A stretch of DNA of 16,746 bases from a virus (lineage: Duplodnaviria > Heunggongvirae > Uroviricota > Caudoviricetes): IMG/VR virus record IMGVR_UViG_2740892439_000018; one strand, given 5' to 3'. The translations under genes were made by a program, and so were the position numbers. The notes beneath the pieces are model-generated. The model was not told where the DNA came from. It searched no databases and saw only the letters and a list, made by a program, of their open reading frames with translations. Shown here piece by piece: positions 1,411 to 7,964 of the stretch. Each line of letters opens with the position of its first letter. The first letter of the stretch is position 1.

Positions 1411-1697
1411 CGCCGCAGTCGTTCCGGCTTCTTCCACTGGTAAGTATTTTTCGCGCTCTCCCTCCGTTGTTGAGAACGGCGACGGTATGCCAGCAACTCA
1501 AGGACTCTGGTTCGTATGTTGCGCATATCCACGCCGTTAAGCTCAATACCGTCACGGCGCATCACCTCAGCCACCACACGCGCGTAATTTTCGGCTATCA
1601 CGCTGTCCGGCTGTGTAGCCTGTTCGTCAGGCTGCTGACTGATTCCGGTAATGCGGCGAATTATTTTTAGTAGATCAGTTTCAGTCATTCTCGTCAT
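1407..1697 (-). CDS. Hypothetical protein, translationally coupled to terL (ATGA overlap)
   Basis: 96-aa ORF whose ATG (1697-1695) overlaps the terL stop TGA (1696-1694); N-terminal two-thirds protein-like, basic C-terminus looks odd. No recognised family. Confidence 0.35.
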   Translation of the reverse strand: MTRMTETDLLKIIRRITGISQQPDEQATQPDSVIAENYARVVAEVMRRDGIELNGVDMRNIRTRVLELLAYRRRSQQRRESAKNTYQWKKPERLRR

Positions 1698-3355
1698 ACC
1701 CCATCAAACGCCGCAAGTCGCTCTTTGTGGCTGTCGCTCATATCAAATGCAAATTCCTCATGCTCTGCCTGGAATGTGCCAAACGCCATCAGCGCCGCAA
1801 CGCTCGGGTCTATCTTGTTGGATGATTTTTTCTTGTTCGGCTTGATATTGGCGTTCGCGTCACTCTGCATCACAACATTACTCATTGACCAGGCCAGCAC
1901 CGGATCACCACGATGCACAATCACCTTCCGGTTAACAAAAACTTCGAACGATTTCGCCGCCGGACTGAAACGAAGGTATGTTTGCGGGAACGGCTCCACC
2001 TCAAATCCTGCCCCCTGTAGCTGCGTCCTCAGGTGCGTGGCGTTCCATGTATCGAAGCCCACCAGCCTGATATTGAAATTCTCTGCATCCGCCATGATGT
2101 CATCACGGATACGGTCATAATCAATGCAGTCACCCGGTGTTGTGCGTATCCAGCCCGCCTTTACCCACTGGCGATAGATGGCGCGGTTTTTATTGGCGGG
2201 GTTCTGTAGCTGAAATTCCGGCAGATAGTGACGGGAAACCAGCATAATCTTTTTACCGACCGGAAAGGCATAGCACACGCTGGAAATATCGCTGGTTGAT
2301 GATAAGTCCAGCCCCGCGTAGCACTCCTGCCCGTATAAATCCGCCTCCGCGAACGTTCCGGCGCACTCCGCCCATGCACCGTTACCCATCCACGGCGTAG
2401 CCCCCTGACACCAGATATTGAATCGCTTGGTGAGCATTTCCACCCACTGCGACGGAATACCCCGCGCTTTCTGGATGGTTGAGGCCAGTTTTTCACGATC
2501 GACGGAAACATCGATATTTGGATTCGCCTTTATCCACATCGCCGGATCGTCAACCTCGCTTTCATCATCCAGCTCGTAAATCAGAACGAACATGGATTCG
2601 TTCATCTCTTCACCATCCAGTATCTGACAGCAATAGTCATAGTGTTGTTTACAGGCTGAAACAACGTTGCTCCCCGATGTGGTGATGGCAAATAACAGCC
2701 CCTCCGGACGCGCCCCCATCCCCAGCTCAAGTGCGGAATAAACCCCGTTGTCTGGGTGCAGGTGATATTCATCCACAATGGCAAGACTCGGGTTTGTCCC
2801 CTCAATGGTTGCCGCTTTTGCTGCCAGTGGCTTTAACAGGCTGTTGGTTTTCGGGTGTATCACCTTGTGCGCCTGAATATTTACCCGCTTTCGTAACGGT
2901 CGGGATAAAAGGCACATCTGACGCGCATCATCAAACACGATCCGCGCCTGATCACGACTCACGGCGGCGGTGTAAATATCCTGCTGCCCGTTTTCCATAA
3001 CCAGAAACCAGTTAGCCAGGATAGCGGCGACCGTGGATTTGGCATTTTTTCGCGGTACTTCAATGAATGCGCTGGTGTATTTGCGCCGTCCGGTGGCCTT
3101 AACCTTAAAGCCCAGGATGCAGGCAAAGGCGAACTGCTGCCACGGCTCCAGTTCAATGGGACTACCGCGCATTGCGCCTTTTACGTGCGGACACACCCGG
3201 GAAAAGGCAATAAACCGCTCCACGACCTCCGGATCGAACGTGTAAAGGGAGTTTTCAAGGTCAGAAAAATACCGTTTAACGGCCTGTTTCAGTCGTTTAC
3301 AGGCCGTAATTTTGCCGTTTTTTACGCCTTCTGCGTACTCATGCCAGGCGGTCAA
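1694..3355 (-). CDS. terL: Terminase large subunit (TerL)
   Basis: 553-aa product with a terminase-type N-terminal ATPase region and C-terminal nuclease region; follows terS with 17-nt overlap. Start appears to be TTG at 3355 preceded by GAGGAAGAGG Shine-Dalgarno. Confidence 0.92.
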   Translation of the reverse strand: MTAWHEYAEGVKNGKITACKRLKQAVKRYFSDLENSLYTFDPEVVERFIAFSRVCPHVKGAMRGSPIELEPWQQFAFACILGFKVKATGRRKYTSAFIEVPRKNAKSTVAAILANWFLVMENGQQDIYTAAVSRDQARIVFDDARQMCLLSRPLRKRVNIQAHKVIHPKTNSLLKPLAAKAATIEGTNPSLAIVDEYHLHPDNGVYSALELGMGARPEGLLFAITTSGSNVVSACKQHYDYCCQILDGEEMNESMFVLIYELDDESEVDDPAMWIKANPNIDVSVDREKLASTIQKARGIPSQWVEMLTKRFNIWCQGATPWMGNGAWAECAGTFAEADLYGQECYAGLDLSSTSDISSVCYAFPVGKKIMLVSRHYLPEFQLQNPANKNRAIYRQWVKAGWIRTTPGDCIDYDRIRDDIMADAENFNIRLVGFDTWNATHLRTQLQGAGFEVEPFPQTYLRFSPAAKSFEVFVNRKVIVHRGDPVLAWSMSNVVMQSDANANIKPNKKKSSNKIDPSVAALMAFGTFQAEHEEFAFDMSDSHKERLAAFDGV

Positions 3356-3695
3356 GTTCGTCCTCTTCCTCTGTTTCCGGTGGATTTCTGCGACGGCTTA
3401 CCGGGTCAAAACCCAGCAAAGAAGCCATTTTGATCATTATTCTTTCTGCGTCAGCCTTTGCGCTCAGTGCGGGGTTTCTGCTCTCGCTGCCCTGACTGTT
3501 AACAATGCTGAACCCGCGCGTCGCAAGGTCTTCGACGGCTTTGCGGTATATGGAGTAGTTAACACAATACAGTTCCAGATTGCTCCAGTCGGCGGGGGTA
3601 AGGTCTTCCCGCCCGGAAAGCTGGCGCGATTTTTCCTTCCACTGCCTGACCGCGATTTCATCCAGGTAAGCGGGGGCTTTTGGTGGTCTTGCCAT
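3339..3695 (-). CDS. terS: Terminase small subunit (P27-like TerS)
   Basis: MARPPKAPAYLDEIAVRQWKE... resembles P27-family small terminase; immediately upstream of terL. ORF-track start at 3740 is a TTG; first ATG is at 3695. Confidence 0.82.
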   Translation of the reverse strand: MARPPKAPAYLDEIAVRQWKEKSRQLSGREDLTPADWSNLELYCVNYSIYRKAVEDLATRGFSIVNSQGSESRNPALSAKADAERIMIKMASLLGFDPVSRRRNPPETEEEDELDRLA

Positions 3696-3746
3696 GTTCT
3701 TTTTTCGCCCAATTATTTTCAAAAAAATTACCGTGCACAAAAATTT

Positions 3747-3805
3747 GAGGGGGCGGTCGGTGTCCGGCAGGGACGGTTTCGTCCTGAAAACCCCCCCCCC
3801 CCCCC
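3747..3805. other. GC-rich block plus C15 homopolymer between HNH and terS; candidate cos/packaging site
   Basis: GAGGGGGCGGTCGGTGTCCGGCAGGGACGGTTTCGTCCTG (3747-3786) then 15 consecutive C (3791-3805); sits where HNH-dependent cos phages place cos, upstream of terS. Confidence 0.4.
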
Positions 3806-3983
3806 TCTGACGGCCTCACCAGCGATTGCGAAAACATTCCATGACCTCGCGGTCACGGTCGGTTAATCGCTTCGCTGTGGTGCGTTTTGTGCGCCCTGTC
3901 CTGTTGGCTTTGTGCTCTGTCTCCTGTGTCTTCCATGTGTCACGCTGCCTTATCAGTCCACGTATCAGCTGGTTTGCTCCTGT

Positions 3984-4424
3984 TCAGTCATCATCGCCAT
4001 ACATCCAGTCGTTACGGTGTGCCGCCCGTTCTTCCTGCTCGCGATACATGCCCGCTTTACGGTTTGCTTTCGTGGCTGGATCTTCCCGTGTCGTCTTACG
4101 GTTGTGGCACGTCTGGCACAATGCCTGGTGATTCCACTCAGGCCAGAAGAGAACATCACCGCCGCCATTGATGGGAATGATGTGATCCACCACAAGAGCT
4201 GGCGTATAAATCCCCTTAGCCAGACAACGCACGCATAACGGGTTTTTGCTCAGGTACAGGGCGCGGTATTTGTCCCACTGTCGGGAATACCCGCGCGCGC
4301 GGCGGTGTCCCCGTCTGGCATCCTCTGCACGCCATGCAGCCCGCCTGTGCTCTTCACACTTGCCGGACTTCACGCGCTTATTACAGCCAGGCTCAGTGCA
4401 TCGCCTTAATGGTTGCCACGGCAT
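3984..4424 (-). CDS. HNH endonuclease (phage packaging-associated)
   Basis: 146-aa product with Cys-rich N-terminus (CTEPGC...C..C) and HNH core ...LVVDHIIPINGGGD...NHQALCQTCHNRKT; AGGGGTG Shine-Dalgarno; overlaps connector stop (TGATG). Confidence 0.9.
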   Translation of the reverse strand: MPWQPLRRCTEPGCNKRVKSGKCEEHRRAAWRAEDARRGHRRARGYSRQWDKYRALYLSKNPLCVRCLAKGIYTPALVVDHIIPINGGGDVLFWPEWNHQALCQTCHNRKTTREDPATKANRKAGMYREQEERAAHRNDWMYGDDD

Positions 4425-6549: not shown

Positions 6550-7717
6550 CTAGCCAGCTTTCATTTCCAGAATTTTGATGGCGTTTGAATCCACCACACC
6601 ACCGCCCAGATATTTATCCGTGTGGACCTTGTAGAATCCGGGTTCAGTAATGTTGTCCGGTCGGGTGCGAATCCCTGTTACATGATCAACGATGAAATAA
6701 CCACGACTGAAATCGCCAACCGCTAGCGGTGCTTTTCCTGCGCCGATGTCCGGCATGGACTCCAGGCAGTAAACAGGACGACCAAGCAACATATCCGGCG
6801 CACCTTCTTTAAGGCTGTCGCGCCAGATATAATCGCCGTTCTCATTTTTCAGCTTCTGTAGTGTCCCTGCCGTGCCCGAGTTCATCACCCAGACGGCATT
6901 TTTGCGGTATTTCGCTTTCAGCTTGTAGAGAATGTCGATCAGTTCGTCCGCTGTAATGGCGGTTCCACTTGCCGCTACCATTTTTTCAATGGTGCCAAAA
7001 GCGCGGGTTTTGTCACTGGTCGCCGCACGGGTGTAAGCATGAAGCCTTTCGGCTTGCCGTTACCGTTGCCATTAACAAAATCATCCTCTTCGGTGCTGGC
7101 GAACGTGTCGGCAATTTCGGAGGATAACCAGCCAGAATATCCACCTCTGAAAAATCTAGGATTTCCTGCGTGGTTTTCGGGTAGGCGTAGATCGGGTTCA
7201 GCTTGATGGTTACGCGTTCAATTTTCGGGGTGTTGGTTTCACTGCGTGCGCTGCCTTCTGTGCCTCGTCCTACAGTTGCGCCGCCAGTGGAAACCAGTTT
7301 CTGAAACTCATTTGATTTTGCAGTCTTCACGGTCGCGATCACGCGCATAACACTGTCATCCTGTAGCTGGCGCATGACTTCGCGATCAAGCTCAGGAATT
7401 ACGGTATATCCGCCATCCCTGCCGCTGTCAGTGCTGGTGGACAGAGATCGCACATCTCCGGTTACGATGTAGTTACGCAATTCATCAGATGATACTTTCT
7501 GGATGCCCGTTCCTGGCTTGCTGCGTTCTTCATCAGCCACAGACTCGAGGCGGGAAATGTCTGTATCGAGGGAATCAGCTTTTGCACGCAGTTCATCAAA
7601 CTGTTTGCCCTCGTCATCGTTCAGGCTGCGGTTTTCACTGTCGGCTTTTTCCAGCAGGGATCGCATCTGGTTTTTCAGGGCGTTTTTTTGCTGGCGGAGC
7701 TCGATTAATTTCTTCAT
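6550..7717 (-). pseudogene. Major capsid protein (HK97 family), disrupted by two single-base frameshifts
   Basis: N-terminal frame 7717-7013 (coiled-coil delta-like region then TIKLNPIYAYPKTTQEILDFSEVDILAGY); a third frame across about 7125-7035 reads SSEIADTFASTEEDDFVNGNGNGKPKGF; C-terminal frame 6981-6550 reads AYTRAATSDKTRAFGTIEKMVAASG...MKAG. Hand translation puts the shifts near 7119-7126 and 7036-7043. Confidence 0.85.
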
Positions 7718-7964
7718 GAAGGTTTTCTCGTATTGGTTAAGATTCAGGACGTGAAACCAACACGGAGGGAGCGCCGCCCGACACTCTCGGCATCTCGCAG
7801 ATCAACCCGGCATCGCGCAGGGGATCGGACGGCAACAGTGGCGGCTCACGTCTGAGTGCCACTATTTAAGATATGGATCAAAAAATTGATGTAAATAAGG
7901 TATTTTTGTTACGAACAGTCTTGAATGTTAACACACAAATAATTTACAAAAATGCTGATAAACT

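Follow-up and report, generated by a model that had tools for sequence, protein, structure and literature searches.

A predicted HK97-like cos site between the HNH and terS genes of a capsid-forming PICI, and the private C15 run within it

The 16,746-nt window, which is the whole stretch of viral DNA that was analysed (IMG/VR record IMGVR_UViG_2740892439_000018), is a capsid-forming PICI (cf-PICI), and with a probability of about 70% the segment at 3721–3807, between its HNH and terS genes, is a cos site built like that of phage HK97. Read along the gene strand (−), the site would consist of a G-rich box (the G-box, 3807–3791), the block TTTTCAGGAC, a 21-nt spacer, the cohesive end CGACCGCCCC (3759–3750), the block CTCAAATTTTT and an A/T-tract (3735–3721), followed by terS. 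The G-box is part of cos, not the cut site. The run of 15 cytosines (C15) that occupies its place in the window is not a designed feature of the element, and is probably a base-calling or assembly error.

The window carries an island located between fis and yhdJ that is 99.6–99.9% identical to islands in several E. coli genomes. RefSeq annotation of these copies gives int, alpA, primase, major capsid, HK97-family protease, portal, head-tail connector, HNH, terS and terL, and no tail genes. This gene set matches that described for cf-PICIs (bioRxiv 10.1101/2022.09.08.507074), and both the annotation of the copies and a Pfam search of the window's own ORFs agree with an island of ~15 kb that has no tail genes. 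The island in the window is not intact: its major capsid gene (6550–7719, − strand) is split by two private single-C deletions, at 7038 and 7132, which are possibly sequencing errors. The packaging genes are all on the − strand, in the order HNH, small ORF, terS, terL. The HNH endonuclease, a packaging accessory nuclease (3984–4424; PF01844), has the GVE2 HNH endonuclease as its best PDB match (5H0M, E 9e-16). The small terminase gene terS (3339–3695) belongs to the P27 family (PF05119, E 1.6e-23) and is annotated as such a gene in RefSeq, while terL (1694–3355) encodes a homologue of the HK97 large terminase (Pfam TerL_ATPase and TerL_nuclease; PDB 6Z6D, E 2.3e-43). The order of HNH and terS around the tract, as read from the ORFs in an earlier note on this DNA, is the one given by Pfam and by the RefSeq annotation of the near-identical copies. 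Between HNH and cos lies the remnant of a conserved 61-aa ORF (3815–3999, − strand), which is frameshifted in the window by a private single-C deletion at 3969. In relatives this ORF (WP_001251188.1) encodes a basic protein, and no other gene lies between it and the right cos end; the part that codes for its C-terminus is kept across the cf-PICI family, and a Pfam search with it gave no match.

The region between HNH and terS had been proposed as the packaging (cos) site on the grounds of gene order, and the DNA ends of relatives do map there. The metagenome contig IMGVR_UViG_3300022664_000095 is a full-length linear molecule of 15,518 nt with both ends at cos. Its right end reads CAGGAC, 21 nt and GGCAC, and its left end starts with CTCAAATTTTT. 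Integrated relatives read GGCAC-CACCCGCCCC-CTCAAATTTTT across this point, and the linear contig is missing exactly 10 nt. The second case is vB_KppS-Ant (LR881103.1; 16.5 kb), which was assembled with SPAdes from the DNA of particles that had been induced in K. pneumoniae DSM 30104 (PMC8006926). It is the cf-PICI KpCIDSM30104, the packaged DNA of which has cohesive ends (bioRxiv 10.1101/2025.02.11.637232). Its linear record ends in GGGGTGGGGGAGGTTTTCAGGAC and begins 22 nt before terS, and compared to the integrated copy in K. pneumoniae ATCC 13883 (NZ_KN046818.1) it is without 69 nt across cos. The record is titled ‘Escherichia phage vB_KppS-Ant’ and was described as a filamentous ssDNA prophage (PMC8006926). 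The evidence on ends thus comes from assemblies of two relatives, not from the window's own element. Other contig ends near the site are scattered (+22, +33 and +67), and true contig ends at most 70 nt downstream of the box number four, against about 1.4 expected by our own estimate. Contig ends alone are a modest signal, and for this reason the placement relies on the two full-length linear assemblies. For a cos site of the HK97 type, dependent on HNH, the window itself has the site between HNH and terS and a TerL homologous to HK97 gp2, while packaged ends at the site are seen in the relatives only.

The cohesive end is predicted to be the 10 nt at 3750–3759 (GGGGCGGTCG on the + strand, CGACCGCCCC on the gene strand), from the gap in the linear contig, vB_KppS-Ant and the comparison with HK97, which has a 10-nt 3′ overhang (PMC9410871). 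Since the 10 nt are absent from the contig rather than duplicated, and by analogy with HK97, the polarity would be 3′; the gap fits 3′ overhangs that were lost to end polishing. The nicks would fall at 3759|3760 on the + strand (CG|GT) and at 3750|3749 on the − strand (CCCC|CTC), leaving 3′ overhangs of 10 nt. The earlier note had offered both the run and the adjoining GC-rich block as candidates for cos. The block, GAGGGGGCGGTCGG at 3747–3760, contains the predicted cohesive end; the C15 run is placed 41 bp upstream of the cut. Cos-adjacent HNH nickases, N.phiGamma and that of GVE2 among them, are reported to nick at CG|GT (PMC3592412), and the HNH protein of the window is closest to the GVE2 enzyme (5H0M). 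The + strand nick at 3759|3760 would, by this analogy, plausibly be made by the HNH protein. The predicted nick site is CG|GT in the window and TG|GT in some lineages. HK97 gp74 differs from the CG|GT nickases in being reported as non-specific.

Around the cut, the elements are held in a regular arrangement on the − strand. Directly downstream of the G-box is the conserved block TTTTCAGGAC (3781–3790), and this is followed by a spacer with a fixed length of 21 nt (3760–3780), with a hypervariable centre and a conserved GG(C/A)AC at its 3′ end. The distance from TTTTCAGGAC to CTCAAATTTTT is identical in 53 of 55 sequence variants. The variability of the spacer centre extends over ~15 nt, and in many lineages this part contains short inverted repeats, which differ in register. 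After the cohesive end comes CTCAAATTTTT (3739–3749), which is kept across the cf-PICI family and would form the first bases of the left end of the packaged genome, as it does in IMGVR_UViG_3300022664_000095. Next is CACGGTAATTTTTTT (3721–3735), a candidate TerS recognition site that covers +15 to +29 of the packaged genome, contains a T7 tract at +23 to +29 and is conserved in the family. The GC-rich block and the small hairpin (GGACGgtttCGTCC, 3771–3784) that had been noticed beside the run are both present. The hairpin overlaps the spacer, however, and as a conserved element (GGACG/CGTCC) it was rejected, because the spacer centre is hypervariable and the hairpin is missing from the consensus fold. 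It is specific to the lineage of the window.

The layout has much in common with that of HK97. In both, cos is located between an HNH gene and terS, and the TerL proteins are homologous (6Z6D). The stagger of HK97 is 10 nt, as is that predicted for the window, and in each a GC-rich overhang (in the window, the predicted one) leads into a left end rich in A/T. Counted from the cut, which for the window is the predicted one, the T7 tract is at +23 to +29 in the window and at +24 to +30 in HK97, the end of the G-run is 41 nt ahead in the window and 42 nt ahead in HK97 (where it is a G9 run), and the ATG of terS is at +55 and +50, respectively. A bottom-strand nick at CG|GT is predicted for the window and implied by the record of HK97. 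The minimal TerS site of HK97 covers +15 to +29 (PMC11331095), and in this A-tract interval the window has CACGGTAATTTTTTT and HK97 has CTAACCCGATTTTTT (PMC11331095). A sequence search with the window's TerS against the PDB found nothing significant among the solved small terminases, that of HK97 included, so the analogy between the TerS sites is positional only. Other differences from HK97 are the P27 family (PF05119) of the TerS, the G-box, where an interrupted sequence (GGGGTGGGGG) that repeats the cohesive end in inverted form takes the place of the pure G9, and the nature of the element, a 15–16 kb satellite without tail genes. When the HK97 and window sequences were aligned, the DNA similarity gave z-scores of 4.6–4.9 against mononucleotide shuffles, and for HK97 against the Klebsiella copy the z-score was 1.4. 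With a DNA similarity that is moderate at best, and no detectable similarity of TerS, the resemblance to HK97 is mainly architectural.

The G-box (3791–3807, − strand) is the upstream, or right-end, arm of cos, and has the family consensus GA-N-GGGG-T-GGGGG-NN. In place of the G15 that the window shows on this strand, every relative has G(3–5)-T-G(5–7), across 534 E. coli genomes, about 190 contigs from IMG/VR and metagenomes, and 10 species of Enterobacterales. A pattern scan that left the position of the T free found the interrupting T in 120 of 120 IMG/VR loci and in 70 of 70 family metagenome loci; when the scan was anchored on the flanks only, with the tract unconstrained, G3–5-T-G5–7 was present in all 121 IMG/VR loci. 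Two apparent exceptions in metagenomes were unrelated chance matches. With a loosened pattern, about 26 of the 36 matches in genome contigs were likewise due to chance, in unrelated taxa. The box with its T occurs in 10 species of Enterobacterales, the genera including Shigella, Klebsiella, Enterobacter, Kluyvera, Pluralibacter, Intestinirhabdus, Erwinia and Pectobacterium. It repeats the cohesive-end block imperfectly and in inverted orientation, and the two form an inverted repeat of 10 nt with 90% identity (3747–3756, GAGGGGGCGG, and 3798–3807).

In the window, the box takes the form of a homopolymer. The C15 run is at 3791–3805 on the + strand (G15 on the gene strand), exactly where it had been reported, and 95 nt separate it from the start codon of terS (the reverse complement of 3693–3695). 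No other homopolymer of at least 9 bases occurs in the whole window, and a run of C12 was seen in none of 200 dinucleotide-preserving shuffles. The three closest copies carry CCACCCCCACCCCC (14 nt) at this position, and the window departs from it in having one more C and two A-to-C changes. The run was not born from random sequence, but is a private form of the conserved G-box. Among 534 complete E. coli genomes that have this intergenic region, the best match over 3696–3860 is only 98.2%, which means that none of the 534 has C15. An uninterrupted G12 or longer run followed by TTTTCAGGAC was absent from IMG/VR, from 185,579 species genomes and from 241 M metagenome records. Only the window sequence has the homopolymer form.

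The most probable explanation of this private form is an error of base-calling or assembly. Apart from the tract, the only private indels in the 16.7 kb, which are 99.9% identical to a relative, are the three single-C deletions (on the + strand) at 3969, 7038 and 7132. That all of them are single-C changes points to a systematic sequencing error of the homopolymer type, or to a decaying copy. The second of these options, in which C15 is real and fixed in the strain, as a recent mutation of the G-box in a cf-PICI that is degenerating and whose capsid gene is lost as well, is less likely than an error but has some support. The three private deletions are frameshifts in otherwise conserved genes (that at 3969 in the 61-aa ORF, and the other two in the major capsid gene), and decayed copies do exist, such as one in Shigella flexneri where the cos core and the terS start are deleted. 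However, the three changes that separate the tract from CCACCCCCACCCCC are clustered within 10 bases and look like a systematic homopolymer or base-calling error, as do the single-C deletions in a sequence so close to its relative. RefSeq complete E. coli genomes contain no 100% match to the window, which would fit an assembly that was excluded for quality. In annotation, it is best to regard the C15 run as a probable error in the sequence and to avoid calling it a regulatory switch. There is also the possibility that it is a real variant that alters packaging efficiency. In the Shigella flexneri copy (CP182556.1, ~3076–3130), the deletion lies between two CCCCGCC direct repeats and takes out the cohesive-end block and A/T tracts along with the first codons of terS, leaving both the cos site and terS dead.

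As to what the conserved G-box does, a function like that of lambda cosQ is proposed, tentatively and by analogy. During packaging, TerS would bind the A-tract of the genome copy that is next in line and stall the incoming motor, after which TerL and the HNH protein would cut the DNA with staggered nicks to give the 10-nt 3′ overhangs. The G-box would then be situated some four turns of the helix upstream of the cut, on the side already packaged, and may, in the manner of cosQ, be required for cutting or termination to proceed correctly. In the termination assembly of HK97, DNA is cut at the TerL–portal interface (PMC10359639), and from this a box 41–55 bp upstream would sit inside the portal at the time of cutting. 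The upstream subsite cosQ of lambda is required for termination (PMC4669245), and its mutations have suppressors in the portal protein (Wieczorek et al. 2002, cited in PMC10359639), which agrees with an element located in the portal or motor at the moment of cutting. Together, these observations lead to the proposal of a cosQ-like role. The position of the box agrees with such a role, since it lies 41 nt upstream of the predicted cut and is conserved in Enterobacterales, Pasteurella and HK97. Like the cosQ-cosN-cosB arrangement of lambda, the region has an upstream element, a nick site, a TerS-binding region and terS, in packaging order, where the nick site and the TerS-binding region are the predicted ones; and like cosQ (PMC4669245) the G-box is highly conserved and is found on the end that is packaged last. 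In lambda, cohesive ends account for 12 positions (PMC4669245). The differences are that lambda has no HNH protein and that the sequence of cosQ is unrelated to the box. The cohesive ends of lambda are 5′ overhangs.

The box might instead act in RNA. In a transcript running from HNH to terS, it could pair with the C-rich block ~40 nt downstream and so control translation of terS or stability of the mRNA. RNAalifold pairs columns 10–22 with 56–69 in an alignment of 24 diverse sequences, the 10-nt, 90% inverted repeat is there to form the stem, and the invariant T would be opposite a G, giving a tolerated G-U pair. However, none of the ten predicted pairs shows compensatory changes in RNAalifold, the z-score for the fold of the single sequence is only −1.8, and the stem ends short of the ribosome-binding site of terS, which is ~45 nt further on. 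HK97, moreover, has a G-run that is just as far from its cut, with arms that are poorly complementary, which favours a role of the G-box at the DNA level. The RNA stem is an improbable explanation.

It had also been suggested that the run is a slipped-strand (contingency) tract, of a length that varies and that switches terS expression or cos cleavage. A homopolymer of 15 bases is intrinsically slippage-prone, and this one resembles tracts of phase variation in being a long G/C run that is intergenic and upstream of a gene, 95 nt from terS and inside the cos region; the family also shows a minor variation in run length, from G5 to G7 in the second run. In contrast to such tracts, its ancestral sequence is interrupted. 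All relatives keep the interrupting T, which suppresses slippage, in a box of nearly constant length, with no length polymorphism of a tract among them, and the homopolymer itself is found nowhere else, whether in the 534 E. coli copies, IMG/VR, the species genomes or the metagenome records. The tract is downstream of the stop codon of the small ORF and outside the reading frames, and it is not part of a promoter spacer, as the gene strand gave no sigma-70-type promoter-like match across it; there is thus no sign that it modulates terS transcription. The same copy of the element also has the disabling frameshifts in its capsid gene. Taken together, a contingency tract is very improbable. A role as promoter or terminator was rejected, for the lack of such a promoter-like match on the gene strand and because terminator-like matches were not above those in shuffles, as was a G-quadruplex, the relatives having only two or three G-runs when their sequences were judged by eye.

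Outside the Enterobacterales, a similar box is present in the Pasteurella multocida ‘phages’ Pmp7 and Pmp8. These are 10.7 and 15.3 kb in size, have a TerL 70% identical to that of the window, and look like cf-PICIs. In Pmp8 (OR544139.1, 1000–1140), and also in Pmp7, the G-box is followed by the same 10+21+10 nt layout and then by ATCAAATTTTT; in Pmp8 the distance from the end of the G-run to the equivalent position is 43 nt. G-rich boxes ahead of the cos end or terS were also observed in more distantly related phages, namely HK97 (G9), Marinobacter phage AS1 (GGGGGCGGGG) and Brucella phage BiPBO1 (GGGGCGGGGGCGG), although the record of the last begins at the ATG of terS and is uninformative on ends. 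The last 130 nt of Paraburkholderia phage IPK contain no G-box; this record was perhaps linearised arbitrarily. The occurrence of the box across phages with TerL of the HK97 type suggests a general cos subsite. A broader proposal, that it is an undescribed subsite of HNH/HK97-type systems, set some four helical turns ahead of the cut as an inverted copy of the cohesive end and read by the portal or terminase to license the terminal cut, as an analogue of cosQ, is doubtful; it would span HK97, the cf-PICIs of Enterobacterales and Pasteurellaceae, and the Marinobacter and Brucella phages.

The cf-PICIs are a recently recognised and widespread class of self-packaging satellites. For their cos sites, the texts that could be searched mention cohesive ends and do not give the sequence. 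What is new here is modest: a placement of the cf-PICI cos at the level of sequence, and a conserved G-box that is common to HK97. With a 10-nt cut block and an HK97-like geometry, the packaging specificity of cf-PICIs acquires coordinates that can be tested, and the placement of the cut explains why packaging of phage and satellite could be mutually exclusive. The G-box, conserved at a fixed distance from the cut and shared with HK97, is a candidate termination signal.

The copies in E. coli are not all at one site. That of strain KSC9 adjoins hpt, while three others are between fis and yhdJ; their packaging modules are near-identical, and the KSC9 copy has different replication genes from the fis/yhdJ copies and presumably a different integrase. 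The presence of the same packaging module at different sites indicates modular exchange among cf-PICIs. At the fis-proximal junction of the island, the window differs from strain N17 by a 12-nt indel (TGACTGCACCAC, at 694–705).
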